A stretch of 64,000 bases of DNA from an uncultured Candidatus Binatia bacterium (GCA_965242525.1 OZ251459.1:320001-384000); one strand, 5' to 3'; counted from the first letter of the stretch, positions 3,455 through 63,308 are shown. A program made the numbers and translations. The notes: generated by a model not told the origin, from the sequence alone.

Positions 3455-5548
3455 ATGAAGACAGACCGCCCGTGCCCCCCCTCTACCGGGTCTGAACGCT
3501 TGGCCCTGCCGTTGCTGCTGCTTGCGCTGTCCACGTTGTTCCTGTGCAACGTGGACAAGGGACACTTCTACAGTCCCGGCAACCAGGACTGGTCCATCCT
3601 GGGCCTGACGATAGCCGAGAACCTGTCGCCGGATCACAATTTCCGGCTGTTCCGGTGGCTGGAACCGGCACCGGACGGCGCCCCCACCTACCGGATCCAC
3701 AGCCGCTTTCCCGTCGGCGGTTACGCACTCATCAAACTCGCCATCCTCCCATTCGGAAACGACCTCTCCGCCAGGATCCTCGCCGCCCGAATGCTCATGT
3801 TGCTGTTGTTCAGCGCCGCTGCGCTCCTGGCCTTCCACTCCCTCGCCCGGATCACCTTCCGCCGCTGGGTCGCGCTGGCCGCCACCCTCACGGCGTTCTC
3901 CTCCTACTACATGCTGTTCTACAGCAACGCGGTTTTCGTGGAGTACAGCGTGGACCTGTTCGCGGTCATGCTGGTGTTCCACGGCATGGTGGTGTTCGTG
4001 CAGGAGGGACGGTTCCGGCAGTTGCTGGCCAGGACCGGCGTTGCGCTGCTGCTGGGCTGGCACGTGTATGCGTTCCTGCTGCCGTTCATCCTCCTGGGCC
4101 TGGGGAGCGAGGCGGTCCGTGCGTGGAAGGACGGGACTGCGGTGAGGCTGCGCTCCGCCGGGGCGGCGGTGCTGCGCAGCCGCTACATGGCTCTTGGCCT
4201 GGCCTCGCTGCTGTTCGGCGCGGCCGTCCTGAGCTTCAACTTCGCCAACGAGTACGCCGCGTTCGGAGGAGAGACCGCGGTGACCGAACTGCCGTCGTTC
4301 CGGTCCATGCTCCGGCACACCGGACTGAACCGGGACTCCCCCCCCCTCGGTTCGTGGCTGTACTTCCTGGAACAGCAGTCCTTCCGTGTCTGCATGGCGT
4401 CCGTTCCATTCGTGCTGAGCGACTGGGGAATCGGTTTGCTGGAGTCGTTTCTCCCGGTTCGCCTTTCGGCGTCGGGCCTCTCGGGACCGGCGTTGTGGGT
4501 TTGCCTCCTGGCGTTGCTGCTGGCCGTCGGAGCATCCACGGCAGTCGTCCGCCTTGCGAGGCCGCTGTTGGCCCGGCGACACCGCATGCCGCTGGCCGCC
4601 CTTGCCCTGTCGGGGTTCTTCTGGGCCCTGCCCATGCGCCACAACGTTGCTTACCACCCTCACGAGGTCCTGTACTACCTGGGCCTCCCCCTGGTGTTCT
4701 ACTCGCTGCTCTTGCTGTACGTCCACAAGCGCTGGGGGCATCGTCCGGTAGTCGGCCTTGCCGCTGCCGTGGCCCTGCTCGCCTTCGTGGTCTCGGTCTT
4801 CCATCTGGATCACCGACGGGGCACGGACGCCCGTGCGGTGGAGCTCCAACAGGTCGCCATGGCCGAACTCGGGGCCATTCGCGAAACCATCCGGGGGAAG
4901 GTGGTCCTGCTACCCGGATCCGTCGAGCCGGAATGGTCCAGGCAATTATTCCCGGTCTTGACGTGGCAATACTACCTCACCGGAAGCGTCTGGATACACC
5001 ACCTCCACGACGTGGAACTTGCCGCCCGCGCCGCGGACTTCATCGTCGTCCATGACCGTGTGGAGAGCGACGCCCTGCTCACCCCCGGGAACGAACAGGT
5101 GTTCCTGTACGATTCCACAGGTATCGACGACCTGGTGGAGCTGTACCGGTCCACCTACCAACAGGCGGTGTCCGGAGACCCTGTGCCGCGCTCCTACTTC
5201 GACCTCCATCGCGGTGCACACAGCTACTTCGACGTCCATCTCGGTGACGACGCGGTGACCTTCGTCAAGGATCCCTGCACCCGGGAGGATGTGAGATCCC
5301 CGATCCAGGTGGACATAACCCCGGAAGACCGGAAGCACCTCTTCTTGATGCGTCCGGAGTACAGCTACAACCGTCCCACCCGCTGGATCAGGTTGGATAC
5401 ACATCCCGTGCGGTTCGAGGGGAAGTGCGTCGCTGTCGTTTCACTCCCCGATTACCCCATCTCCGGCATCAGGGCGAAACAGAAGCTACGCCGGTCCCGC
5501 GATGGGCGCAGGTCCTACTGGGAAGTGGAGATACCGGCGAGCCGGTAG
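3455..5548 (+). CDS. Multi-TM GT-C-like membrane protein with C-terminal 2-Cys domain, paralog 1
   Basis: Many hydrophobic helices; AENLSP, SRFPVGGYALIKLAILPFG, FNFANEY and KxPC..FEGKC motifs shared with five other copies. Confidence 0.85.
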   Translation: MKTDRPCPPSTGSERLALPLLLLALSTLFLCNVDKGHFYSPGNQDWSILGLTIAENLSPDHNFRLFRWLEPAPDGAPTYRIHSRFPVGGYALIKLAILPFGNDLSARILAARMLMLLLFSAAALLAFHSLARITFRRWVALAATLTAFSSYYMLFYSNAVFVEYSVDLFAVMLVFHGMVVFVQEGRFRQLLARTGVALLLGWHVYAFLLPFILLGLGSEAVRAWKDGTAVRLRSAGAAVLRSRYMALGLASLLFGAAVLSFNFANEYAAFGGETAVTELPSFRSMLRHTGLNRDSPPLGSWLYFLEQQSFRVCMASVPFVLSDWGIGLLESFLPVRLSASGLSGPALWVCLLALLLAVGASTAVVRLARPLLARRHRMPLAALALSGFFWALPMRHNVAYHPHEVLYYLGLPLVFYSLLLLYVHKRWGHRPVVGLAAAVALLAFVVSVFHLDHRRGTDARAVELQQVAMAELGAIRETIRGKVVLLPGSVEPEWSRQLFPVLTWQYYLTGSVWIHHLHDVELAARAADFIVVHDRVESDALLTPGNEQVFLYDSTGIDDLVELYRSTYQQAVSGDPVPRSYFDLHRGAHSYFDVHLGDDAVTFVKDPCTREDVRSPIQVDITPEDRKHLFLMRPEYSYNRPTRWIRLDTHPVRFEGKCVAVVSLPDYPISGIRAKQKLRRSRDGRRSYWEVEIPASR

Positions 5549-31164: not shown

Positions 31165-33275
31165 AGCCTCCCGGTCTCCGTCCGGAACGCCTCACCCTGT
31201 GGTTGCTGCTGCTCGCACTGTCCACGTTGTTCCTGTGCAACGTGGACAAGGGGTACTTCTACCGTCCCGGCAGCCCCAACTGGAATACGGCGAAGAACCT
31301 GGCCATCGCCGAGAACCTGTCGCCCCACCACCGTTTCCGGTTGTCGCCGGGGCTGCGCCCGGGACCGGGCGGCGCCCCCGCCTACGAACTGTACAGCCGC
31401 TTTCCCGTGGGCGGTTACGCGCTCATCAAACTCGCCATCCTCCCCTTCGGGAACGACCTGTCCGCAAAAATCCTCGCCGCCCGAATGCTCATGTTGCTCT
31501 TGTTCAGCGGCGCCGCGCTCCTGGCCTTCCACTCCCTCGCCCGGATCACCTCCCGCCGATGGGTCGCATTGGCCGCCACCCTCACGGCGTTCTCCTCCTA
31601 CTACATGCTGTTGTACGGCAACGCGGTTTCGGTGGAGTACAGCGTGGACCTGTTCGCGGTCATGCTGGCCTTCCACGGCATGGTGGTGTTCGTGCAGGAG
31701 GGACGGTTCCGGCAGTTGCTGGCCAGGACCTGCGTTGCGCTGCTGCTGGGGTGGCGCGTGTACGCCTTCCTGCTTCCCTTCATCCTCCTGGGCCTGGGGA
31801 GCGAGGCGGTCCGGGCGTGGAAGGACGGGACTGCGGTGAGGCTGCGCTCCGCCGGGGCTGCGGTGCTGCGCAGCCGCTACACGGCCCTTGGCCTGGCCGC
31901 GCTGCTGTTCGGCGCGGCCGTCCTGGGCTTCAACTTCGCCAACGAGTACACCGCCTTCCGAGGCGAGACGCCGGTGACCGAACTGCCGTCGTTCCAGTCC
32001 ATGCTCAGGCGGACCACCGGCGTGGGCCAGGACCCGGACGCCTCCTTCCACTCCAGGGGGTGGCTGCGCTTCCTGCGACAGCAGTTCTACCGTGTCCGCG
32101 TGGCGTCCGTTCCAGGTGTGCTGACCGAATGGGGCGCCGGTCTGCGGGGGCGGTTCCCCTCGGTTCCCTCTTCGGCGTCCGGCCTTTCGGGGCCGGAGTT
32201 GTCGCTTTACCTGCTGTCGTTGCTGCTGGCGGCGGTCGCCTCCGCGGTGGCGGTTCGGCTTGCAAGGTCGCTGTTGTCCCGGCGGCAATGCATGCTGCCG
32301 GCCGTCCTTGCCCTGTCGGGGTTCTGCTGGGCCCTGCCCATGCGCCACAACGTTGCCGACCACCTTCACGAGGCCCTGTACTACGTGGGCGTGCCGCTGG
32401 TGTCGTACTCACTGTTCCTGCTGTACGTCCACCAGCGCTGGGGGCGTGGTCCGGTGGTCGGCCTTGCGGTTGCGGCGCTGCTCGCCTTCGTGCTCTCCGC
32501 CTTCCAGATGGAACGACGATGGCGCCCCGACGCCCGGGCGGCAGAGGTCCAGCGAACCGCCATGGCCGAACTCGGGGTCATCCGCGAGACCACCCGGGGA
32601 AAGGTGGTCCTGGTCCCCGGTTCCGTCGAGCCGGAATGGTCCGGGCAGTTCACACAGCGGAACTACGGATCGGACTACGAATGGAGGTACTACCTCGCCG
32701 GAAGCGTCCTGACGCAATTCCCCGACCTCACGCGTTTACCTCACCTGTACCCCGCCGACCCCCGGGACCCCGCCGGAAACGTCCTGGCGCAATCCCTCGA
32801 CGTGGAAGCGGCCGCCCGCGCCGCGGACTTCATCGTCACCCGCGACCGCGTGGAGAGCGACGCCCTGCTCACACCCGGGAACCAACGGGTGTTCCTGTAC
32901 GGTTCCGCGGGCATCGACGACCTGGTGGAGTTGTACCGGGCCACGTACCAACGAGCGGTGTCCGGAGAACCTGCGGCGCGCTCCCGGTTCGACGTCTATC
33001 TCGGTGACCGCGCGCTGTTCCACGTCAAGGATCCCTGTGTCGTGGAGGACGCAGGTCACTGGATCGTCGTGGAGGTGTATCCGGAAGACCCGAAGGACCT
33101 GCCCGAAGAGTACGAACGGTACGGCGACAACCGCGACTTCCGGCTCTATGGGCACCCCGTGCTGTTCGAGGGGAAGTGTATTGCGGTGGTTTCACTCCCC
33201 GATCATCCCATCTCCCGCATCACGACGGGACAACTGCAACACGGCTGGGAAGTGGAGATACCGGCGAGCCGGTAG
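31161..33275 (+). CDS. Multi-TM GT-C-like membrane protein, paralog 4
   Basis: ATGA overlap with paralog 3; family motifs. Confidence 0.87.
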   Translation: MKPPGLRPERLTLWLLLLALSTLFLCNVDKGYFYRPGSPNWNTAKNLAIAENLSPHHRFRLSPGLRPGPGGAPAYELYSRFPVGGYALIKLAILPFGNDLSAKILAARMLMLLLFSGAALLAFHSLARITSRRWVALAATLTAFSSYYMLLYGNAVSVEYSVDLFAVMLAFHGMVVFVQEGRFRQLLARTCVALLLGWRVYAFLLPFILLGLGSEAVRAWKDGTAVRLRSAGAAVLRSRYTALGLAALLFGAAVLGFNFANEYTAFRGETPVTELPSFQSMLRRTTGVGQDPDASFHSRGWLRFLRQQFYRVRVASVPGVLTEWGAGLRGRFPSVPSSASGLSGPELSLYLLSLLLAAVASAVAVRLARSLLSRRQCMLPAVLALSGFCWALPMRHNVADHLHEALYYVGVPLVSYSLFLLYVHQRWGRGPVVGLAVAALLAFVLSAFQMERRWRPDARAAEVQRTAMAELGVIRETTRGKVVLVPGSVEPEWSGQFTQRNYGSDYEWRYYLAGSVLTQFPDLTRLPHLYPADPRDPAGNVLAQSLDVEAAARAADFIVTRDRVESDALLTPGNQRVFLYGSAGIDDLVELYRATYQRAVSGEPAARSRFDVYLGDRALFHVKDPCVVEDAGHWIVVEVYPEDPKDLPEEYERYGDNRDFRLYGHPVLFEGKCIAVVSLPDHPISRITTGQLQHGWEVEIPASR

Positions 33276-51376: not shown

Positions 51377-53596
51377 TCAAGGGAGCCGCCCGGGCCGGCC
51401 CACCGGCAATTCTACTTCCCAGCCGCGGCGTCCTTTCCAGTCGGGGAGCCGGTATGGCTGCTGTCCCGTCCTGACGCTGGAGACGGGATAATCGGGAAGT
51501 GGAAGGACGGCCATGCACTTCCCCTCGAACAGCACGCCGCTTTGTTGGAAGAGGATGTAAAGCTCTTCGGATCCGTGCCGCCGGCGCTCTTCGGGAAGGT
51601 CCTTCGGGTCTTCCGGGACCACCTCCACGAAGGCCGTCAATCCCACGTCTTCCCGGACGCAGGGATCCTTGACGTGGAAGATGGCGTCCTCACCGAGATG
51701 GACGTCGAAGTGGGAGCGCGCCGCAGGTTCTCCGGACGCCACCCGTTGGTGCGTGGCCCGGTAGAACGCCACCAAGTCGTCGATACCGGCCGAACCATAC
51801 AGGAATACCCGTTGGTTGCCGGGCGTGAGCAGGGCGCTGCTCTCCACGCGGTCGCGGGTGACGAGGAAGTCCGCGGCGCGGGCGGCGGCTTCCATGTCCG
51901 GGAAGTGCGTCAACGCGCTTCCGGCGGGGTGGTATCTCATGGCGCCTTGCGTGTGGAGGGAGTACGCCAGGACGCTTCCTGCGAGGTAGTACCTCCATTT
52001 GTACTGCTGCTGTGTGACCTGCCAGGACCATTCCGGCTCGACGGACCCGAGGACCAGGACCGCCTTTCCCCGGGTGGTTTCGCGGATGGCCCCGAGTTCG
52101 GCCATGGCGGTTCGCTGGATCTCTGCCACCCGGGCGTCGGGGCGCCACCGTCGTTCCGTCCCGAAGGCGGAGACCACGAAGGCGAGCAGGGCCGCAACCG
52201 CAAGGCCGACCACCGGACCGCGCCCCCAGCGCCGGTGGACGTACAGCAGGAGCAGTGAGTACAGCACCAGCGGCGCGCCCACGTAGTACATGGCCTCGTG
52301 AGGGTGGTAGGCAACGTTGTGGCGCATGAGCAGGGCCCAGCAGAACCCGGACAGGGCAAGGGTGCCCAGCAGCATGCGGCGCCGCCCTGCCAACAGCGGC
52401 TTCGCAAGCCGAACCGCGGCCGCGGATGCGGCCACCGCCGCCAGCAACGACAGGAGGTAAACCGACAACTCCGGCCCCGAAAGGCCGGACGCCGAAAAGG
52501 GAACCGGCGGGAGCCACCCCCGCAAACCGGCGCCCCAGTCGGTCAGCACCCATGGAACGGACGCCACGCGGACACGATGGAACTGCTGTCGCAGGAAGCG
52601 CAGCCACCACCTGGAGTGGAAGGGGGCGTCCAGGTCCTGGCCCACGCCGGTGGTCCGCCTGAGCATGGCCCCGAAGGACGGCAGTTCCGTCACCGGGGTC
52701 TCGCCTCCGAACGCGGCGTACTCGTTGGCGAAGTTGAATCCCAGGACGGCCGCGCCGAACAGCAGCGCGGCCAGGCCAAGGGCCATGTAGCGGCTGCGCA
52801 GCACCGCCGCCCCGGCAGAGCGCGCACGCGGCCACAGCGCCGTCTCGTCCTTCCACGCCCGAACCGCCTCGCTACCCAGGCCCAGGAGGAGGAACGGCAG
52901 CAGGAACGCATACACGTGCCAGCCCAGCAGCAGCGCAACGCAGGTCCTGGCCAGCAACTGCCGGAACCGTCCCTCCTGCACGAACACCACCATGCCGTGG
53001 AAGGCCAGCATGACCGCGAACAGGTCCACGCTGTACTCCACGCAAACCCTGTTGCCGAACGACAGCATGTAGTAGGAGGAGAACGCCATGAGGGTGGCGG
53101 CCAGCGCGACCCAGCGGCGGGAGGTGATGCGGGCGAGGGAGTGGAAGGCCAGGAGCGCAGCACCGCTGAACAGGAGCAACATGAGCATTCGGGCGGCGAG
53201 GATCCTGGCGGACAGGTCGTTTCCGAATGGGAGGATGGCGAGTTTGATGAGCGCGTAACCGCCCACGGGAAAGCGGCCGTACAGTTCGTAGGCGGGGGCG
53301 CCGCCCGGTCCCGGGCGCAGTCCCGGCGACAACCGGAAACGGTGGTGGGGCGACAGGTTCTCGGCGATGGCCAGGGTCTTCCCCGTGTTCCAGGTAGGGT
53401 GCTCCGAACGGTAGAAGTACCCCTTGTCCACGTTGCACAGGAACAACGTGGACAGTGCGAGCAGCAGCAACCACAGGGTGAGGCGTTCCGGCCGGCCCCC
53501 CGGGGAGGATGAGGCGGGCTTCACGAATGGTCCGTCTCCGTCTTCCAGATCGACGGCTTCCTTGTCGGGCGGTGGATCCGGGATGGCGCGCGTCAT
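51377..53596 (-). CDS. Multi-TM GT-C-like membrane protein, paralog 6
   Basis: ATGA overlap with the upstream arylsulfotransferase; family motifs. Confidence 0.87.
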   Translation of the reverse strand: MTRAIPDPPPDKEAVDLEDGDGPFVKPASSSPGGRPERLTLWLLLLALSTLFLCNVDKGYFYRSEHPTWNTGKTLAIAENLSPHHRFRLSPGLRPGPGGAPAYELYGRFPVGGYALIKLAILPFGNDLSARILAARMLMLLLFSGAALLAFHSLARITSRRWVALAATLMAFSSYYMLSFGNRVCVEYSVDLFAVMLAFHGMVVFVQEGRFRQLLARTCVALLLGWHVYAFLLPFLLLGLGSEAVRAWKDETALWPRARSAGAAVLRSRYMALGLAALLFGAAVLGFNFANEYAAFGGETPVTELPSFGAMLRRTTGVGQDLDAPFHSRWWLRFLRQQFHRVRVASVPWVLTDWGAGLRGWLPPVPFSASGLSGPELSVYLLSLLAAVAASAAAVRLAKPLLAGRRRMLLGTLALSGFCWALLMRHNVAYHPHEAMYYVGAPLVLYSLLLLYVHRRWGRGPVVGLAVAALLAFVVSAFGTERRWRPDARVAEIQRTAMAELGAIRETTRGKAVLVLGSVEPEWSWQVTQQQYKWRYYLAGSVLAYSLHTQGAMRYHPAGSALTHFPDMEAAARAADFLVTRDRVESSALLTPGNQRVFLYGSAGIDDLVAFYRATHQRVASGEPAARSHFDVHLGEDAIFHVKDPCVREDVGLTAFVEVVPEDPKDLPEERRRHGSEELYILFQQSGVLFEGKCMAVLPLPDYPVSSVRTGQQPYRLPDWKGRRGWEVELPVGRPGRLP

Positions 53597-56139: not shown

Positions 56140-56913
56140 CTACGGCGCGGCCCGCGGTCTCGCCCGGGGCGGGCCCGCGCTGCGGAGGTCGATGGTCTGC
56201 CCGCACAGGCCCCCGGCGAGGTCGCTGAGCAGGAAGGCGGCCACCGCGGCCACCCGGGGCGTTGCGGAAGGGGTCTCGCCCGCGGGGGCGGGGACGGTGT
56301 CCGGCCGGGTCTCGCCGCGGCTCCGGGGCGCGCCGGCCGCCGCGGCTCCGGCCGCCTGGGCCGGCAGCAGCACGTTCAGGGTAACGTTGTCCCCGGCCAC
56401 GCCCGCGGCCGCGGACTTGAGCCAGGCGGACAGGGCGGCGCCGGCCACGGAGTGGACCTGTCTTTCGGCGTCGGTCCCCGGGTCCGGCCACGGGATCATC
56501 CAGAGCACCCGGCCCCATCCCCGGCGCTGCATTCCGCGCACGAGGGTCTCGGTGGCCGCCCGGAAGCCGAGGAAGCCGGCGCCGAGCCGGGTTTCCCAGG
56601 ACGGCGTGCTCCCTTCCGGCGGGGCGGGAAGCCGGGCCACCCCGAACAGCAGGTCGATGTCGCCCAAGTCCTCGGTGATGCGGCTCACGAGGGCGACGGT
56701 GGAAGGCTCGTCCCAGCCTTCGATGCGGTAGCCCGCGGCGTTGACGCCGCTCCGCTCCACGTTCTCCGAAGCGACCCTTTGCGCCGCCCATCCCTTGCGG
56801 GCGCACACCGCCAGGTCGGCCCCCTCGGCCGCCAGGGCCCCGGCCACGGCCCGGCCGACGCCCCGGGAGCCGCCGAACACCAGCGCCCGCCTGCCTCGGA
56901 TGCCCAGGTCCAT
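56140..56913 (-). CDS. Atypical short-chain dehydrogenase/reductase
   Basis: MDLGIRGRRALVFGGSRGVG Rossmann start, MQRRGWGRV, NVTLNVLLP; no YxxxK. Confidence 0.78.
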   Translation of the reverse strand: MDLGIRGRRALVFGGSRGVGRAVAGALAAEGADLAVCARKGWAAQRVASENVERSGVNAAGYRIEGWDEPSTVALVSRITEDLGDIDLLFGVARLPAPPEGSTPSWETRLGAGFLGFRAATETLVRGMQRRGWGRVLWMIPWPDPGTDAERQVHSVAGAALSAWLKSAAAGVAGDNVTLNVLLPAQAAGAAAAGAPRSRGETRPDTVPAPAGETPSATPRVAAVAAFLLSDLAGGLCGQTIDLRSAGPPRARPRAAP

Positions 56914-56919
56914 GGCGGT

Positions 56920-57894
56920 TCAGGAGCGCGCCTTCCGGTCCTCTCCGCCGCGCCGCGCCCGGAGCCGGATGGGGTGCTCCGGGTGCAGTGGCCGGAAGTC
57001 GGTCATGGAAAGCCAGACCCTCAGGAGATGCCGGCCGGGTCCCCGGTCGTCGGTGAACCCGGTGCGGGTGTGGAGGACCACGTGGTTGTTGAAGTACTCC
57101 ACGTCCCCGGGCTCCAGCTCCATGGACACCGACACCCGATCGGCCACGGCGTTGAAAGCCGCCAGCGCTTCGTTCTGCTCCGGGGTCAGTTCGGGGACCC
57201 CGGGCAGCGACTGTGCGCGCTTGATGTGGACCCGGTAGGCGCAGGCGTTGAAGACCCCGTCCCGGAAGTTCAGGAACGGCAGCCGGGTCCAGGGGTGTCC
57301 GTGGTCCGGGTGGGGATGTTGCAGGGCCATGTGGAAGGGTTGGGTCAGGGTCCGCAGCAGTCGGGGATGCTCCTCCCGCATGACGTTGTACACGGTGGCG
57401 GAGCTGGCGAACTTGCGCGTCCCGCCCGCGGACGCGGACCGTACGCACAGGAACCCGATGACGTCTTCCAAGTCGGCATGGAACGGAAGCTCGCCGGTGT
57501 TGCGAAAGCCGAACCTGCCCTGGGTCTCGGGCTGTGCGCGCACGTGGGCCAGGGTCACGCCGCCGGGCTGCTCCATGGGACGGCCGAGTTGGCGGCTCAA
57601 GGCCAGGAAGGCGTTGGCCGTGCCGTCCTTGCCCAACTCCTTGACCGGCAGGCCCCGGAGTATGCGGAAGCCGACTCCCGACTTGAGCTCGTGGAACGTC
57701 TTCCGTACCTGTGGGGCCAGGAGGGGGAGCGGCGGCGGCTCGTCCGCGCCCGGGGGTCTTCGGGCCGCGGCCAGCAGCTCCGCGGCCTCGCGGCCCGTGA
57801 GGTCGTGGCGCCACGTTTCCGAGCGGGCGAGGTCTTCCGGCGTCCATGCCGCCGGGTCCGTGGTCCTGGGATGGTCTTCCGCGAGTTGGCCCAT
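56920..57894 (-). CDS. TauD/TfdA family Fe(II)/2-oxoglutarate dioxygenase
   Basis: FHADLE (HxD), NNHVVLHTR, RHLLRVWL; AAGGAGG RBS. Confidence 0.9.
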   Translation of the reverse strand: MGQLAEDHPRTTDPAAWTPEDLARSETWRHDLTGREAAELLAAARRPPGADEPPPLPLLAPQVRKTFHELKSGVGFRILRGLPVKELGKDGTANAFLALSRQLGRPMEQPGGVTLAHVRAQPETQGRFGFRNTGELPFHADLEDVIGFLCVRSASAGGTRKFASSATVYNVMREEHPRLLRTLTQPFHMALQHPHPDHGHPWTRLPFLNFRDGVFNACAYRVHIKRAQSLPGVPELTPEQNEALAAFNAVADRVSVSMELEPGDVEYFNNHVVLHTRTGFTDDRGPGRHLLRVWLSMTDFRPLHPEHPIRLRARRGGEDRKARS

Positions 57895-57920
57895 GAGCGT
57901 TCCCTCCTTGCGTGGCGGCG

Positions 57921-59267
57921 TCACCTTTCCCGGAAGGCGTCCTGGCGGTAGCCGCGCAGCGGTTGCAGGACGTACTCGATGACGCGTTGCTTCCCCAGTA
58001 TGACCGAGGCTTCCGCGGACATGCCGGGCAACAGATCGATCTTCCGGCCTTCGATCTCCATCCAGGTCTGGTCCAGGTCGATGAGCGCCCGGAACAGGGG
58101 GCCGGCCGTTTCCGCGCCGGACCCGGAAGAAGAGGACGGGTCCGATGCGGAGGCGCCCTGCGGGGACGTCCGGACGCCGTCCTGGAACCCGGCGTTCACC
58201 GCGTCCTTGCCCACGTGGCTGACCGCGCCTTCGATGGCCCCGTAACGGCGGAAGTCGAAGGTGGCGACCTTCAGGGCCACCCTCTGGCCGGGCTCCACGA
58301 AGCCGATGTCCGCGTTGGAGACGAATGCCTCCATTCGAATGCCCGCGTTCCGGGGCACGATCACCATGAGCCGGGCGCCGGGCTCCACCACGCCGTTCTC
58401 CGTGTGCACGGCCAGGTCCTGGACCACTCCGTCCACCGGCGACGCCAGGGTGTGCCGGCTCCGGTGCTCCCGGGCCTGGCGGATCTCCTGGCGCAGCACG
58501 ATCATCCTCTCCCGGACCGCGGCGAGGGCGGTGCGGCGTTCCCGGTAGAAGTCCGAGACCACTCCTTCCTTCTGCGCTTGCAGCGCGGCCAGGGAGGCCC
58601 TGGCCTGGGCCAGCTCCTCCTCCCGGAGCGCAAGGTCGCCCTGGACCTCCACCAGCCGCTCCTGCTCTTCGAGGAGGTCGAGCCGGGAGCCGTGGTCCTT
58701 GCGGAAGAGGACCTCGCGCATGCGCGTCCTCTCGCGCAGCAGGGGCAGCAGTCTCCGGTGCTTGGCAATGCCCGCCTCCAGGGTGCGGATGCGGGCGCGC
58801 CGTTCCCGGACCATGCCGTCCAGTTCGTGGAGGCGGGCGCGGTGGGCGGCGATCTGGTCCGCCAGCAGCCTCTCGTTGATGGCTGCGATCTCCGGCGGCG
58901 CGTCCGGGGGAGGCCGGAACGGCGCGCCCTTGCGCCAGTCCAGCAGCGCTTCCAGACGGGCCGCCTCCGCGGACTTGACGCCGAGTTCCGAGGTATGCTT
59001 CACGATGTCGGCGTCCACCAGTGTAGTGTCGAGCTCCACCAGCACTTGGCCCCGTTCCACCGCGCTCCCTTCCTCCACCGCGATCCGCCGGACCTTTCCG
59101 CGCTCGAAGGAGCGGATGGTCTTCACCTGCCCCCGCAGGACGATCCGTCCCGGGGCCACCGCGGCCAGCTCCACCTCGGCGATGGAGGCCCAGGCGAGGG
59201 TCGCCACCAGGAAGGCGCACAGGGCCGCCAGCAGGATGACGTGGGTGCGGAGGGGCGGCCTATCCAC
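57921..59267 (-). CDS. HlyD-family type I secretion membrane fusion protein
   Basis: N-terminal TM, coiled coil, SPVDGVVQDL, DIGFV, LLPGM, VIEYVLQPL. Confidence 0.95.
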   Translation of the reverse strand: MDRPPLRTHVILLAALCAFLVATLAWASIAEVELAAVAPGRIVLRGQVKTIRSFERGKVRRIAVEEGSAVERGQVLVELDTTLVDADIVKHTSELGVKSAEAARLEALLDWRKGAPFRPPPDAPPEIAAINERLLADQIAAHRARLHELDGMVRERRARIRTLEAGIAKHRRLLPLLRERTRMREVLFRKDHGSRLDLLEEQERLVEVQGDLALREEELAQARASLAALQAQKEGVVSDFYRERRTALAAVRERMIVLRQEIRQAREHRSRHTLASPVDGVVQDLAVHTENGVVEPGARLMVIVPRNAGIRMEAFVSNADIGFVEPGQRVALKVATFDFRRYGAIEGAVSHVGKDAVNAGFQDGVRTSPQGASASDPSSSSGSGAETAGPLFRALIDLDQTWMEIEGRKIDLLPGMSAEASVILGKQRVIEYVLQPLRGYRQDAFRER

Positions 59268-61074
59268 CTTGCGCCTCCCGCGGACTCCGGCGGGCCAGGG
59301 GGCTCACCCCGTCCCCGGGCCTTGCGCCCATCTCCCTGACCAGCGCCGACTCCTCGCGCACCATGGCGGCGAAATACCCGTTCCCCCGGGCCAGTTGCGC
59401 GGGGGTCCCCTGCTCCGCCACCTTGCCCTGCTCCAGGCAGACGATACGGTCCGCATGGCGCAGCGCGGACAACCTGTGTGCGATGACGACCACGGTCCGC
59501 CCTTGCGCGAACCGCCGCACGTTCTGCTGGATCCGGCCCTCGTCCTCTCCGTCCACCGAGCTCGTGGCTTCGTCCAGGATCAGCACGCTGCCGGAATGGT
59601 AGAGCGCCCGGGCCAACGCGATGCGCTGGCGCTCGCCGCCCGAGAGGACCGCGCCCCGGGCGCCGACCCGGGTGGCGTAGCCCCGGGGGGTCCGGGTGAC
59701 GAACTCGTGGGCGCACGCGGCCCGGGCCGCGGCGATGACCCGGGGCATGCGGCGCTCGCCCGGCCCCAGGGCGATGTTGTCGGCGATGCTGCGCCGGAAG
59801 ATGGGGTAGTCCTGCTCCACCGCGCCCATGTGGCTGCGCAGCCAGTCCGGGTCCAGGACCGCGGCGTCCGCGCCATCCAGGAGCACGCGCCCTCCGGTGG
59901 CCAGGTAGAGCCGCTGGATCAGGCGCGCCACCGTGCTCTTGCCCGATCCCGACGGACCCACGATGCCCAGGGTCTCGCCGGGCCCGACCTCGAAGGTCAC
60001 GCCCTCCAGGGCCTCCCGGTCCGCGTCCGGATAGCGGAAACGCACGTCCTCGAAACCGATGGCCCCCTTGAGGGACGGCAGTTTCACGAGGTGGCCGTCC
60101 TGCCGTTCGGTGGGCTCGTTCAGCACCGTCCCCACTTCCCGCACCAGCGCCCGGAGCCGGGTGAAGTCATAGACGAACGTGCACAGCCGCATCATGGGCT
60201 GGGAGAACCGCATGTTCACCAGGTTCACGGCCACGAGCTGCCCCAGGGTGAGCTGCCCGTCCAGCACCATGGAGGCGCCGAACCACAGCAGGCCCGCGGT
60301 GGCGAAGCGGTTCACGAACTGGTTGTACTGGTTCATGGAGTCGCGCAGGTCCTGGGTGTCCTCGTCCGACGACGCGGCCTCGCCCACCCGCCGGGTGAGG
60401 AAGGCTTCCTGGGCGGGTTCCTCGTGCATGCCCTTGACGGTCTCGATGCCGTTGAAGGTGTCGAGCACCGCCTCGTTGCCCTCCCGGCGGCTGTTCCTGG
60501 TCTTCCGGCTCCGCTGCTGGAGCGTGGGCATGACCAGGAAGGCGGGGGCCGCGTACAGGGGCAGGCAGGCCAGGACCACCAGGGCCAGGGTGAGGCTGAA
60601 GTGGAGCATCAGGACCAGGAAGACCAGCATGAAGAAGATATCGACGAACACGAACACCACCGCGTTGGTGAGGAAGCGGCGCAGGTGGCGGATCTCTTCG
60701 ATGCGGGAGAGGGTCTCCACCGGGGTGTTGCGCAGGTAGAAGGAGACGGGCAGCTCCAGCGAGTGGCGGATGAGGCGCGAGAGGAGCGAGCGGTCCATGT
60801 CGCGGACGGAGCGGCGCAGGACCCTGTGGCGGGCGGCGCGAAGGACCGCCTCGAAGGCCAGGAAGAAGAGCAGGCTCACGATGATGACGTCGAGGGTGGC
60901 GGCGCCCCGGTTGGACAGGACCTTGTCGATGATGATGAGGAAGGTGAAGGGGTAGATGTAGCCCAGCAGGTTGATGAAGAAGGACGCCGCCACCAACGGA
61001 CCGAAGACGGCCTTGTGGGTGAGCAGGTGCTCGGCGATGGAGCGGAGGGTGAACTCCTGGCGGTCCTCAGCCAT
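59260..61074 (-). CDS. HlyB-like type I secretion ABC transporter lacking the C39 domain
   Basis: IIIDKVL near the N-terminus; GPSGSGKS, LSGGERQR, ILDEATS. Confidence 0.92.
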   Translation of the reverse strand: MAEDRQEFTLRSIAEHLLTHKAVFGPLVAASFFINLLGYIYPFTFLIIIDKVLSNRGAATLDVIIVSLLFFLAFEAVLRAARHRVLRRSVRDMDRSLLSRLIRHSLELPVSFYLRNTPVETLSRIEEIRHLRRFLTNAVVFVFVDIFFMLVFLVLMLHFSLTLALVVLACLPLYAAPAFLVMPTLQQRSRKTRNSRREGNEAVLDTFNGIETVKGMHEEPAQEAFLTRRVGEAASSDEDTQDLRDSMNQYNQFVNRFATAGLLWFGASMVLDGQLTLGQLVAVNLVNMRFSQPMMRLCTFVYDFTRLRALVREVGTVLNEPTERQDGHLVKLPSLKGAIGFEDVRFRYPDADREALEGVTFEVGPGETLGIVGPSGSGKSTVARLIQRLYLATGGRVLLDGADAAVLDPDWLRSHMGAVEQDYPIFRRSIADNIALGPGERRMPRVIAAARAACAHEFVTRTPRGYATRVGARGAVLSGGERQRIALARALYHSGSVLILDEATSSVDGEDEGRIQQNVRRFAQGRTVVVIAHRLSALRHADRIVCLEQGKVAEQGTPAQLARGNGYFAAMVREESALVREMGARPGDGVSPLARRSPREAQGG

Positions 61075-61897
61075 GGCTCTCTTCGCCGGGGTCGTTGCCC
61101 CACGCCAGCATCAGGCCTTGCGCCGTCAGGCGCCGGACCAGGGCGTCGCGGGCGACGCCGTCGGGCGCCGCGGTCTCCCCCGGGGCCGCACCGCGCCCCG
61201 GGGTCTCGCCATCTCCCTCCGCGGCCGGCTCGGTCCGGGACCATTCCGCGGCCTCTTCCAGCAGTGCGAATGCCTCCGGCGGAAGCTCCATGACCGCGGG
61301 CCGGCGCCGCCCGCGGGAAGCCAGGACGGCCAGGCGGAGCGGCCGCGGACGGACCTCCTCCCGGGACCGGCCGGGCTCGAACAGGGGTCGGACGTCGTGG
61401 CCGCAGCGCACCAGCACGGCGCAGGGGTGGGTGCGGCGCCAGCCATGGGAGGAGGGGCTCGGGCGCTGCGCCATCGCTTCGCGCTCCATGGCCGCGGGAC
61501 GGAACGTCCGCGCCCGGGCCAGGGCCAGCTCCACGGCCGCCACGTCCGCGGCCCACGCCGGCGTGGGCGGCCGGCCGGCCCATCGTTCCAGGAAATGGTC
61601 GAAGAAGCGCTTGGCGTCCGGGTAGCGCTCGTAGGACCTCGGCGGGCACGCGGCCGCGAAGTCCCGCATGACCTCGGAGAAGCGGTGGCCCAGCAGGTTC
61701 GCGGTCCGCTCGAAGGTCTGGCGGAGCTTCTTGGTCCGCTTGCCGTAGGAGAACTCCGCCTCCAGCCGGAGGCGCCGGACGTCCATGCCGTCCAGGTCCG
61801 GGTCCAGGGCCGCGGACCCGAGGCCTTCCGTCCCGAAGATGAACGCTTGGCTCGTCAGGTGGCGCAGCAGGTTGGTCTGTCTGTCAATCAGCCGCAT
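61067..61897 (-). CDS. DUF2063-like MNIO partner protein (probable RRE)
   Basis: Overlaps the DUF692 gene end; F..TANLLG..F..DF...PP, ADVAAVELA pattern. Confidence 0.7.
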   Translation of the reverse strand: MRLIDRQTNLLRHLTSQAFIFGTEGLGSAALDPDLDGMDVRRLRLEAEFSYGKRTKKLRQTFERTANLLGHRFSEVMRDFAAACPPRSYERYPDAKRFFDHFLERWAGRPPTPAWAADVAAVELALARARTFRPAAMEREAMAQRPSPSSHGWRRTHPCAVLVRCGHDVRPLFEPGRSREEVRPRPLRLAVLASRGRRRPAVMELPPEAFALLEEAAEWSRTEPAAEGDGETPGRGAAPGETAAPDGVARDALVRRLTAQGLMLAWGNDPGEESHG

Positions 61898-62759
61898 GGG
61901 TCCCGGTCCTTTCCCTCAGTGAGGCGGCCCGCGCCGCCTGTGCGCGCAGGCGCGCCACGTCCGCCAGGAGTTCGTCCCCCTGCTCGTAGCCGTTGTCCCG
62001 TTCGAGGACCACCGTCTGCGGGCGTTGCCGCAGGAGCGCGTGCTCCAGCAGGTCCAGGGCCTCTTCCGGCACCGGGTGGCTGTGGTCGTCCGCGTGGAAG
62101 GGCGCGTCGAGGTAGGGCCGGTGGACCAGGGGCCCGCCCGCGGCGTGGACGTCGGTCACCACGTCCTCGGGCAGCTCGTCCAGGAACGCGCGGGGGTCGA
62201 AGCCGTGGTTCCGGGAGTTGACGTGCAGGTTCTCCACGTCCAGCAACATGCCCACTCCGGTCTCCCGGAACAGCAGGTTGAAGAACTCGGCGTCGCTCAT
62301 CTCCCCGTCCGGGAAGTCGAACACGTAGGAGATGTTCTCGATGGAGAACGGCACCGGCAGTCGGGCCTGGACCTGCCGGATCTTGGGGACCAGCAGGTCC
62401 GCCGCGGCCCGGTTCCTGGGCACGGGCAGCAGGTTGGCGATGTCGATGCCCGGCACCTTGGTCCACGCCAGGTGCTCGCTGTAGGACGGTGTCCGGAGGT
62501 CCTCGACGGCCTGCGCCACCCCGTCCAGGTAATCCTCGTCCAGGGGCGCGTCGGTGCCGATGGAAAGGCCCACTCCGTGCAGCGCCAGCGGTATCCTGTC
62601 CACCAGGTTGCGGATGGCGCTGCGGGCGTATTCGCCGCCCTTGATGTAGTGGTCCACCGTCACCTCCAGCACGTCGAAGCGGTGCAGGTTGGCCAGGGTC
62701 CACCGGGCGATGGGAACCCGGAACCCGATGCCGATCAGGGGGGATGTGGATGTGTTCAT
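61884..62759 (-). CDS. DUF692 multinuclear non-heme iron oxidative enzyme (MNIO)
   Basis: IGIGFR, LHGVGLSIG, SEHLAW, IENI, LLDVENLHVN, VHAAGG, DDHS, LERD. Confidence 0.95.
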   Translation of the reverse strand: MNTSTSPLIGIGFRVPIARWTLANLHRFDVLEVTVDHYIKGGEYARSAIRNLVDRIPLALHGVGLSIGTDAPLDEDYLDGVAQAVEDLRTPSYSEHLAWTKVPGIDIANLLPVPRNRAAADLLVPKIRQVQARLPVPFSIENISYVFDFPDGEMSDAEFFNLLFRETGVGMLLDVENLHVNSRNHGFDPRAFLDELPEDVVTDVHAAGGPLVHRPYLDAPFHADDHSHPVPEEALDLLEHALLRQRPQTVVLERDNGYEQGDELLADVARLRAQAARAASLRERTGTHAAD

Positions 62760-62867
62760 GCAGTCTCCCTGCGCCCCGCGCGGGCGGAAGCTCCCGGACC
62801 ATCCGGGCGCCCGCGCCGGGCTTGCGCGCTCGCCGCCCCGGCCTCTCCGGGGCGCGTTGGCCCGCCC

Positions 62868-62896
62868 CGTCGTTCCCGCGAAAGCGGGAATCCCGC
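62868..62896. repeat. REP-like unit
   Basis: CGTCGTTCCCGCGAAAGCGGGAATCC; same family as 39032. Confidence 0.7.
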
Positions 62897-62945
62897 GGCG
62901 TTGGCTTCTACAGGGATATGATCGGACGGTTGGCCCGGAACTTTA

Positions 62946-63055
62946 GGAACCTCTGGACAATTCCGAAGCGAGGCGCCTCTCCCTATGGGAAAGCGCGTCC
63001 TTCGACTCCGCTTCGCTACGCTCAGGACGAACGGAGGCAATCGTTCAGAGTTTCC
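62946..63055. mobile_element. 110-bp MITE
   Basis: GGAACCTCTGGACAAT..ATCGTTCAGAGTTTCC; copy of 11267-11376. Confidence 0.82.
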
Positions 63056-63059
63056 TTCA

Positions 63060-63192
63060 GGAACCTCTGGACAATCGAGACATCCGGGATGGATTCCCTC
63101 GCCCTGACCGCCCTGTCCCCGTTCGTCCTGAGCGTAGCGAAGCGGAGTCGAAGGACGGGACCTTGCCTCTGTCCCGGTTGTTCGGATGTTCC
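63060..63192. mobile_element. 133-bp MITE (long variant), adjacent to the previous element
   Basis: GGAACCTCTGGACAAT..GTTGTTCGGATGTTCC; 4-bp spacer TTCA from the previous element. Confidence 0.82.
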
Positions 63193-63308
63193 TTTGGCGT
63201 TCCCCGGCGATCCGTGCGCGGGAGGCGCGCACGGGACCGGGAGGGAAGGGGCGTCGGGGAGTCAGCCGCACCCTCTCCGGAAGGGGAGGGCGGGGCGGGG
63301 GATGCGGC

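Follow-up and report, generated by a model that had tools for sequence, protein, structure and literature searches.

In a stretch of 64,000 nucleotides from an uncultured Candidatus Binatia bacterium (GCA_965242525.1 OZ251459.1:320001-384000), here called the window, positions 56140-62759 carry an operon of six genes, which encodes an MNIO (DUF692) iron oxidase together with a type I exporter. Judged from the sequence, this operon quite probably serves to mature and export proteins with Cys-Gly repeats, which are encoded elsewhere in the genome. This reading is proposed because the MNIO gene of the window is the only PF05114 gene in the whole genome, because a whole-genome six-frame scan revealed exactly two open reading frames (ORFs) with long (CG)n runs, both bearing the same leader, and because genes for such proteins are linked to genes of the system in relatives and follow a matching phyletic pattern.

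The preliminary description of this DNA had proposed an undescribed pathway for peptides made on the ribosome and modified after translation (RiPPs) or for protein modification and export. The neighborhood analysis supports this proposal, with candidate Cys-Gly-repeat substrates found in trans, and the ORF accompanying the MNIO operon is, in three relatives, a Cys-Gly-repeat precursor gene.

The Operon and Its Candidate Substrates

All six co-oriented and coupled genes that had been described are present on the minus strand. They are listed here with the upstream spacer and the two candidate precursor genes, the latter in coordinates of the whole genome (G000).

61884-62759, minus strand: MNIO (DUF692) iron oxidase, 291 amino acids (PF05114, E = 5e-74)
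61067-61897, minus strand: MNIO partner protein, 276 amino acids (TglI/NGO1945-like fold of the model)
59260-61074, minus strand: HlyB-type ATP-binding cassette (ABC) exporter, 604 amino acids (PF00664 and PF00005 pass, TIGR01846 partial)
57921-59267, minus strand: HlyD-family type I secretion adaptor, 448 amino acids (TIGR01843)
56920-57894, minus strand: TauD/TfdA-family Fe(II)/2-oxoglutarate oxygenase, 324 amino acids (PF02668, E = 3e-36)
56140-56913, minus strand: short-chain dehydrogenase/reductase (SDR)-like protein, 257 amino acids (PF13561 and PF00106)
62760-63308, no strand: upstream spacer, 549 nucleotides, without a credible precursor ORF
G000:C1:3803937-3804230, minus strand: candidate precursor, 97 amino acids, 15 Cys, leader and (CG)n
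G000:C1:1578932-1579504, minus strand: candidate precursor, 190 amino acids, 17 Cys, leader and (CG)n, Sel1-repeat gene next

The operon region has a G+C content of about 70%. Here, the MNIO and partner genes overlap by 14 nucleotides, the next two junctions are overlaps of 8 nucleotides each, and gaps of 26 and 6 nucleotides follow, with the start of the TauD gene corrected to 57894. Terminator-like sites occur at chance level (four seen versus 2.8 expected) and all of them lie within the ABC gene. The operon had been called an orphan. This holds for the 549-nucleotide spacer, in which a credible precursor ORF was sought and none was found, but not for the genome, where the two distant candidate substrate genes are present.

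The Cys-Gly-Repeat Precursors

Both precursor genes of this genome encode acidic proteins in which 12-15 Cys-Gly dyads follow the conserved leader. An alignment revealed the layout of the family, namely a leader M-Q...W.L..R(D/N).DLDLE.HG (also written MQ...W.LD.RDEDLDLE.HG), a run of CG, CD or CS dyads, an acidic linker and a variable C-terminus. Solely the leader and the Cys-rich core are conserved throughout the family. The genes have a conserved ATG-CAx start and a purine-rich GGAAGGAGAAC-type stretch a few nucleotides upstream (5-8 nucleotides in the two copies of this genome). For one orthologous pair the dN/dS ratio is 0.31 overall and 0.13 in the leader. The family is small, with 29 representative clusters at E <= 1e-3 and 16 at E <= 1e-10 among 1.84 billion proteins. 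Judging by the conserved start with its ribosome-binding stretch, the dN/dS ratio and the representative clusters, the Cys-Gly precursors are real genes.

Four of five precursors have no Lys or Arg within the first 10 residues, and the maximum 9-residue hydropathy within the first 30 residues is at most 1.39, compared to 2.26 for the neighboring Sel1-repeat protein. By these two measures, the precursors appear to lack a Sec signal. A scan of genome contigs with the precursor profile yielded at least three true relatives and at least two Bacteroidales loci, the ORFs of the latter being without the leader. The C-terminal domains of the precursors have no match in Pfam, NCBIfam or PHROGs, and a search of the ESM Atlas with the C-terminal domain from this genome gave none either.

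A look-up of public sequencing runs for the precursor locus listed no RNA run. The DNA runs holding at least half of the sampled words of L035:7800-9800 include one labeled as sponge metagenome, and other runs with this label hold 0.27-0.47 of them. In genome G019, the N-terminus of the precursor (L031:9971-10507) contains four tandem 'DALQR' units, and a tandem 15-nucleotide repeat 'GTACCCAAGAAGCGG' is present in the DNA upstream of it.

Linkage Across the Genus

The comparison covered the 28 sampled genomes of the genus, which in this sampling make up the whole family, as well as 22 operons, namely the window and 21 operons in 20 loci. MNIO was found in 26 of the 28 genomes and the precursor profile matches 27 of them. 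Genome G013 (98% complete) has neither MNIO nor precursor and contains only a TauD paralogue of 35% identity; here the genes flanking the empty site are 66 nucleotides apart. For G018 (76% complete) precursors were found and an MNIO match was not. Since the flanking orthologue is missing as well, the MNIO locus of this genome is probably unassembled.

The ABC gene follows the partner gene in all 22 operons, counting one fragmentary and one split copy, and in 19 of them it is linked to the SDR-like gene. The HlyD and TauD genes are in the operon in 11, absent from it in 10 and broken in one. They are adjacent in every examined locus holding either of them intact, the broken copy (L027b) being a HlyD fragment only. 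A TauD orthologue is present in all nine system-bearing genomes checked and missing from the empty-site genome.

In five genomes (G002, G020, G005, G007 and G010), the HlyD and TauD genes that the MNIO locus lacks occur at a second locus, where they come right behind a precursor gene. These pairs are 60-73% identical to the window proteins, and in four of the five genomes a small membrane protein is encoded between precursor and HlyD. G009 and G042 also have a precursor followed by HlyD-TauD, in G009 without the intervening membrane protein. Six of the 16 precursor loci examined read precursor, then HlyD-TauD (G002, G020, G005, G009, G042 and G007), and G010, which reads like those six, brings the number to seven genomes; G018 and G041 fit this arrangement by coordinates alone. 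Furthermore, a precursor gene lies upstream of a paralogous MNIO operon, on the same strand, at a distance of 13 nucleotides in G019, about 0.1 kb in G014 (a spacing taken from locus coordinates) and 2.4 kb in G006. Second copies sit in surroundings of lower G+C.

Due to these second-locus and paralogous-operon linkages, each gene class of the window except the SDR-like one stands beside a precursor gene somewhere in the genus. The exporter-dioxygenase linkage on which the preliminary description had leaned is therefore seen in altered form. The physical linkage of HlyD and TauD moves; the functional association, as far as gene content and order tell, holds, since HlyD-TauD is found elsewhere, often after a precursor, and TauD is absent together with the system from the empty-site genome.

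This distribution also bears on the question whether the Cys-Gly proteins have to do with the ABC/HlyD exporter alone, as its cargo, with MNIO and partner acting on something else or at a residue beyond the CG core. In the split genomes the precursors are indeed linked most strongly to HlyD-TauD and not to MNIO, and MNIOs with non-Cys chemistry are described in part of the literature, e.g., ortho-tyrosine formation and homocitrulline hydroxylation. On the contrary, three precursors are located upstream of MNIO genes, those of G014 and G019 directly in the canonical precursor position. The family-wide conservation is confined to the very Cys-rich core and its leader, and near MNIO there is no other conserved candidate substrate. 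A role as mere cargo is therefore considered unlikely.

The MNIO Enzyme

The MNIO of the window reaches 249.3 bits against PF05114 (cut-off 25) and covers model positions 2-260 of 263. The metal-ligand motifs noted earlier are borne out: nine residues (H61, H96, E141, D174, N177, H205, D224, H226 and E253), candidates for the iron ligands of the MbnB structures, do not vary among 20 homologues and align with the same residues of 3bww, a solved HvfB-type protein. The 'ERD' Asp (D255) has likewise been kept throughout the 20 homologues, and an Asn is present at the position of the Phe in the 'ERDF' of 3bww. For FonB, which belongs to the clade of BufB and HvfB, the relevant passages describe a preference for the Cys-Gly dyad and propose the 'ERD' Asp as the base (PMC13097082).

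The nearest sequences in the PDB are 3bww (E = 9.6e-36), TglH (3.6e-18) and MbnB (4.6e-6). Among the NCBIfam models, BufB (NF050167, 204.2 bits) and HvfB (NF003818, 178.2 bits) score best, both under their equivalog cut-offs of 310 and 360, respectively. The MbnB model TIGR04159 gives 41.6 bits, with an equivalog cut-off of 325. The enzyme is nearest to the characterized 5-thiooxazole clade, yet stays under its curated cut-offs, and it is set apart by partner type, precursor type and export route as well. Its own clade comprises over 120 unnamed clusters with at least 57% identity, and there are metagenomic homologues of 58-72% identity. MNIOs in 400 sampled genomes of the phylum are only 30-36% identical and occur in 8 genomes, and a scan of metagenome contigs with the MNIO returned six loci, four of the same synteny and two at about 40% identity.

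The Partner Protein

The second gene had been described as a DUF2063-like partner, which is correct for the fold and not for the family signature. Against PF09836 (DUF2063) the protein reaches 17.5 bits, under the cut-off of 27.2, and it has neither a match in NCBIfam nor a sequence match in the PDB, 3dee included. However, the best three PDB matches of its AlphaFold model (predicted local distance difference test score 76.7) in Foldseek are TglI (8hi7_A, E = 1.9e-5), 8hci_A and NGO1945 (3dee, E = 3.4e-3). The model displays a helical N-domain and a beta-rich C-domain resembling a RiPP recognition element (RRE), without the DUF2063 signature.

According to the passages on partner types in PMC12452194, PME-type 2 partners lack the DUF2063 signature and accompany signal-less MNIO precursors. 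Since the DUF2063 cut-off is failed and TglI and NGO1945 are the best structural matches, the model identifies the window protein as an MNIO partner of the PME-type 2 kind. A complex prediction with MNIO, partner and precursor residues 1-62 scored 0.59, the same value as a control with the MNIO replaced.

Comparison with Captophorins

The captophorins (bufferins BufABC, oxazolin HvfABC and fontiphorin FonABC) combine an MNIO with a DUF2063-RRE partner, convert Cys to 5-thiooxazole and are copper-binding peptides, as described in parts of PMC13097082 and PMC12452194. The 5-thiooxazole product has a UV absorption at about 305 nm, a value taken from a passage of PMC13097082.

The window system shares several features with them. 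BufB and HvfB are the best curated models for the MNIO and 3bww is the nearest solved sequence, the 'ERD' Asp is kept, the substrate is rich in Cys-Gly dyads, and the partner consists of a helical domain and an RRE-like domain. This could suggest an ordinary captophorin or bufferin system, in which a copper-buffering peptide of the periplasm is made by MNIO and partner, the remaining four genes being bystanders. However, the window enzyme stays below both equivalog cut-offs (204 versus 310 and 178 versus 360), and its partner is without the DUF2063 signature of PME-type 1. The precursors of the window genome lack a Sec-type N-terminus, are strongly acidic and carry bare (CG)n runs and variable C-terminal domains, in contrast to the EGKCG or Cys-Lys motifs given for captophorin precursors in the passages concerned. 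Among the six operon proteins scanned there is no match to DoxX or DUF2282; instead the operon has a dedicated ABC/HlyD pair as well as genes for a TauD oxygenase and an SDR-like protein, and the substrate genes lie in trans. Moreover, the linkage of ABC in 22 of 22 operons and the HlyD-TauD pairs after precursors in seven genomes show that the exporter genes are no bystanders. An ordinary captophorin is therefore very improbable.

Export and Tailoring Proteins

The exporter had been described as peptidase-less, and in fact the ABC protein of the window has no N-terminal C39 or C39-like domain. With TIGR01846 (HlyB) it reaches 534 bits, under the cut-off of 725.55, and covers positions 122-692 of 694. 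Since the match starts at position 122, the protein has no N-terminal domain. Its Walker A, Walker B and signature motifs are all intact, and the HlyB structures 7sgr and 8dck match with E about 1e-119. In many relatives the ABC protein has an N-terminal extension, about 150 amino acids in two ORFs read full-length, which is weakly C39-like (PF03412, E = 9.4e-4 and 0.011, both under the cut-off); a PDB sequence search with this extension gave no match. The apparent gap of about 450 nucleotides between the partner and ABC genes of relatives was considered as room for a precursor and rejected, as it codes for the extension. The only full-scoring C39 peptidase domain of the genome (PF03412, E = 2.9e-34) is located at G000:C1:1614536-1614922 in an open frame of 786 amino acids, 35 kb from the gene of the 190-amino-acid precursor.

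HlyD reaches 335.4 bits with TIGR01843, above the cut-off of 208.65, and HlyD_3 and HlyD_D23 were also found. As outer-membrane factor, the genome contains one TolC-like ORF with two OEP repeats (G000:C1:2906863-2908017), which is unlinked to the operon.

The TauD protein matches PF02668 with 126 bits (cut-off 27). Its nearest structures are 7n7v, a 'predicted hydroxylase' (E = 6e-39), and FrbJ (5eqn, E = 2e-20). The stretches 'FHADLED' and 'NNHVVLHTRT' align with 'FHIDSTD' and 'NNHLVLHGRT' of 7n7v, and FHxD and NNHxxLH presumably provide the HxD...H metal triad. A literature search on the PDB code 7N7V found no paper. The SDR-like protein passes PF13561 (E = 3e-16) and PF00106 (E = 9e-15). 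It was rightly called atypical, since in 12 homologues the Rossmann motif GGSRGxG is invariant while the YxxxK position is not kept and reads H/Y/D/R ... G/T/S, without Lys.

With FrbJ, a small-molecule hydroxylase, among the nearest solved relatives of TauD, a different pathway was considered, in which TauD, SDR-like protein and MNIO tailor a non-ribosomal metabolite for an ABC/HlyD pump and the Cys-Gly proteins are unrelated. The partner, however, has the peptide-presenting fold of TglI and NGO1945, the SDR-like protein is without catalytic Tyr and Lys, and no scaffold-forming enzyme is present in the operon. Precursor genes are, furthermore, repeatedly joined to HlyD-TauD or to an MNIO gene, which makes a small-molecule pathway extremely improbable.

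Proposed Function

In the proposed maturation and export of the Cys-Gly proteins, the partner would bind the leader and present the core to the MNIO, which would oxidize the Cys of the Cys-Gly dyads to sulfur-containing heterocycles. By analogy with BufB, HvfB and FonB the likeliest of these would be 5-thiooxazoles, an assignment that is tentative and that we put at a little under even. Since the precursors appear to lack a Sec signal, the ABC protein, HlyD and the single TolC-like protein would export the signal-less product. The TauD-type oxygenase would add a hydroxylation, possibly on the Asp/Ser-rich linker, and the SDR-like protein, having lost its catalytic Tyr and Lys, may belong to the ABC module as an accessory subunit or a binding subunit. 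The product is probably a secreted metal-binding module, either alone (the short form) or joined to a variable cargo domain.

Several points weigh against this assignment. In this genome, 1.2 and 3.4 Mb separate the precursor genes from the operon, and their link is therefore drawn from the relatives. Of the 16 precursor loci, six have neither HlyD nor TauD nearby and four are without an ORF meeting the strict motif; the HlyD-TauD pairs of G012, G024 and G021 are solitary, since the 5 kb upstream of them contain no CG ORF. The related genomes are not independent, and the clean negative is one genome only. In addition, the missed BufB and HvfB cut-offs and the Asn in place of Phe mean that specificity and reaction of the MNIO may differ from those of the captophorin enzymes. 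Finally, the ABC protein of the window is without the N-terminal domain present in many relatives, a point that concerns its recognition of the leader.

Modular C-Termini and Downstream Genes

The genes downstream of 25 distinct precursor ORFs in relatives were surveyed. Behind all six precursors with a C-terminus of the type found in the window's own genome (class A) comes a Sel1-repeat protein whose N-terminus contains a hydrophobic segment, assigned by Pfam on two of the six proteins (E = 1e-60 and 1e-74). A Gly/Ala-rich C-terminus (class B) is followed in eight of eight cases by a protein of 148-210 amino acids with two to four predicted transmembrane segments and no Pfam family. As for the remaining precursors, two lead directly to MNIO, one to HlyD, and two short forms to a gene for a cobalamin adenosyltransferase; in one case the next protein is another one with three transmembrane segments, in one case a 483-amino-acid ORF comes next, and four are unclear.

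In the window's genome, the Sel1-repeat protein (326 amino acids, G000:C1:1577872-1578852, i.e., L035:7873-8853, minus strand; PF08238, E = 1e-60) is encoded by a gene which begins 79 nucleotides after that of the 190-amino-acid precursor, and this pairing is repeated in five relatives. The Sel1-repeat protein is a candidate immunity or chaperone partner.

An extra C-terminal class displays the invariant pattern S..H..G.A.D...H.H.E.D (P0126, P0133, P0134, P0146, P0147, P0149 and L027:17285-17899, minus strand). The best PDB matches of a model of this class are of the Hedgehog N-terminal/LAS zinc-peptidase fold (E about 2e-3, probability 1.00), which suggests that this domain may be a cell-wall peptidase cargo. 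The copy at L027:17285-17899 has neither leader nor Cys core.

In their sequences, the modular precursors with class-specific downstream genes resemble toxin-immunity pairs. This opens the idea of a 'Trojan-horse' bacteriocin family, in which the Cys-Gly module is a metallophore handle on polymorphic antibacterial cargo. Here, the MNIO would make the (CG)n core a metal-binding poly-heterocycle, and ABC, HlyD and TolC would secrete the chimera. Target cells would take it up via a metallophore receptor, and the variable C-terminal domain would kill those that lack the matching immunity protein encoded downstream. The cargo would be the Hedgehog/LAS-type fold, the Gly/Ala-rich hydrophobic tails or the class found in the window's genome, and candidate immunity proteins would be the exported Sel1-repeat protein or the small multi-pass membrane protein. 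As a whole this scenario is doubtful.

Relation to Other Systems

The maturation and export system proposed here has to be compared with three further groups. The putative 'adjamnio-I' precursors comprise 100 sequences of 122-293 amino acids with 8-21 Cys and no signature, as given in Table 2 of PMC12452194, and a passage of the same paper gives the gene order precursor, MNIO and PME-type 2 partner (Antoine et al., 2025). Compared by the description in that table only, they are similar to the Cys-Gly family in length range, Cys count, lack of a signal and type of partner. The two may be the same family. The terms 'HlyD', 'ABC transporter' and 'dioxygenase' do not occur in the main text of that paper, and its passages on these precursors describe neither trans-encoded precursors nor variable C-terminal domains (PMC12452194).

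In the methanobactin (MbnA/B/C) and pearlin (TglHI) systems, too, an MNIO and its dedicated partner act on Cys in a peptide that has a leader and no signal, and TglI is the best structural match of the window partner. Methanobactin is a secreted metal binder. In contrast, the window MNIO is distant from MbnB (41.6 bits versus 325 required), TglH and MbnB rank far behind 3bww (3.6e-18 and 4.6e-6 versus 9.6e-36), and these systems have other precursors and other genes for tailoring and export.

Class II microcins of the colicin V type are exported by an ABC protein with a C39 domain, a HlyD-type adaptor and TolC, and have an adjacent immunity gene. The likeness lies in leader-bearing ribosomal products exported by ABC, HlyD and TolC; in addition, many precursors of the relatives have a Gly/Ala-rich C-terminus followed by a small protein with two to four transmembrane segments. 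Unlike in these microcins, the window ABC protein is without a peptidase domain, the C39-like domain of the relatives is weak and sub-threshold, the leader ends in His-Gly, and the MNIO-modified Cys core has no microcin counterpart.

In the literature on MNIO/DUF692 and on Binatota/Binatia, no MNIO coupled to ABC, HlyD and TauD was found to be described, and no (CG)n precursors. PMC8692599 was considered as a prior description and rejected, since it mentions DUF692 and Binatota in unrelated passages. The sequence comparisons point to a conserved, uncharacterized variant of MNIO peptide or protein maturation with dedicated export.

The MNIO family is young and each new branch has so far led to new peptide chemistry, the largest known MNIO products being the bufferins/captophorins, Sec-exported copper buffers. 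If the proposed maturation and export holds true, a run of up to 15 uninterrupted Cys-Gly dyads would give an unusually dense array of sulfur heterocycles, and the exit via a dedicated ABC/HlyD route alongside an Fe(II)/2-oxoglutarate oxygenase would set the system apart. The same module on different C-terminal domains would mean that MNIO chemistry reaches a secreted, possibly antagonistic, protein family. Furthermore, this would be an example of a biosynthetic system divided among distant loci, which cluster-based genome mining would label 'orphan'. The 97-amino-acid precursor together with MNIO and partner forms a three-gene system that is small enough for co-expression.

The Upstream Spacer and Recurring Sequences

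The spacer upstream of the MNIO gene contains an inverted repeat with 44-nucleotide arms at 62996-63039 and 63114-63157 and a 21-nucleotide direct repeat at 62941 and 63055. Its first 330 nucleotides are about 80% conserved in the nearest relative (G023), where a transposase-like gene comes next. The insertion of this 366-amino-acid ORF (L014:10566-11666) lies about 0.6 kb upstream of the MNIO orthologue, and the DUF6282 gene that is the usual neighbor has been shifted out of the stretch examined.

The region 62941-63157, just upstream of the operon, belongs to a dispersed repeat with other copies at G000:C1:1579576 and C1:1019153. Its inverted arms read 'CGTCCTTCGACTCCGCTTCGCTACGCTCAGGACGAACGG...' and its end reads 'ATTGTCC.G.G.TTCCTAAAGTTC...GTC.GATC'. 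A common regulatory site of operon and precursor gene (CTAAAGTTCC..GTC.GATC) was considered and rejected, as it is the end of the dispersed repeat. Since CTAAAGTTCC...GATC is also present upstream of uvrB, it is not specific to the system.

The six-frame scan also revealed a recurring Cys-rich peptide '...CCCCCSRCPRCSCATWTRDTSTVP...' at about 3459-3608, 31165-31839 and 52690-53520 of the window and at more than 20 other sites of the genome (e.g., C1:938-960 kb). The 'CCCCCSRCPRCSCATWTRDTSTVP' peptide looks like what results when the conserved 5' part of a large family of paralogous genes is read out of frame, and not like a real Cys-rich product.

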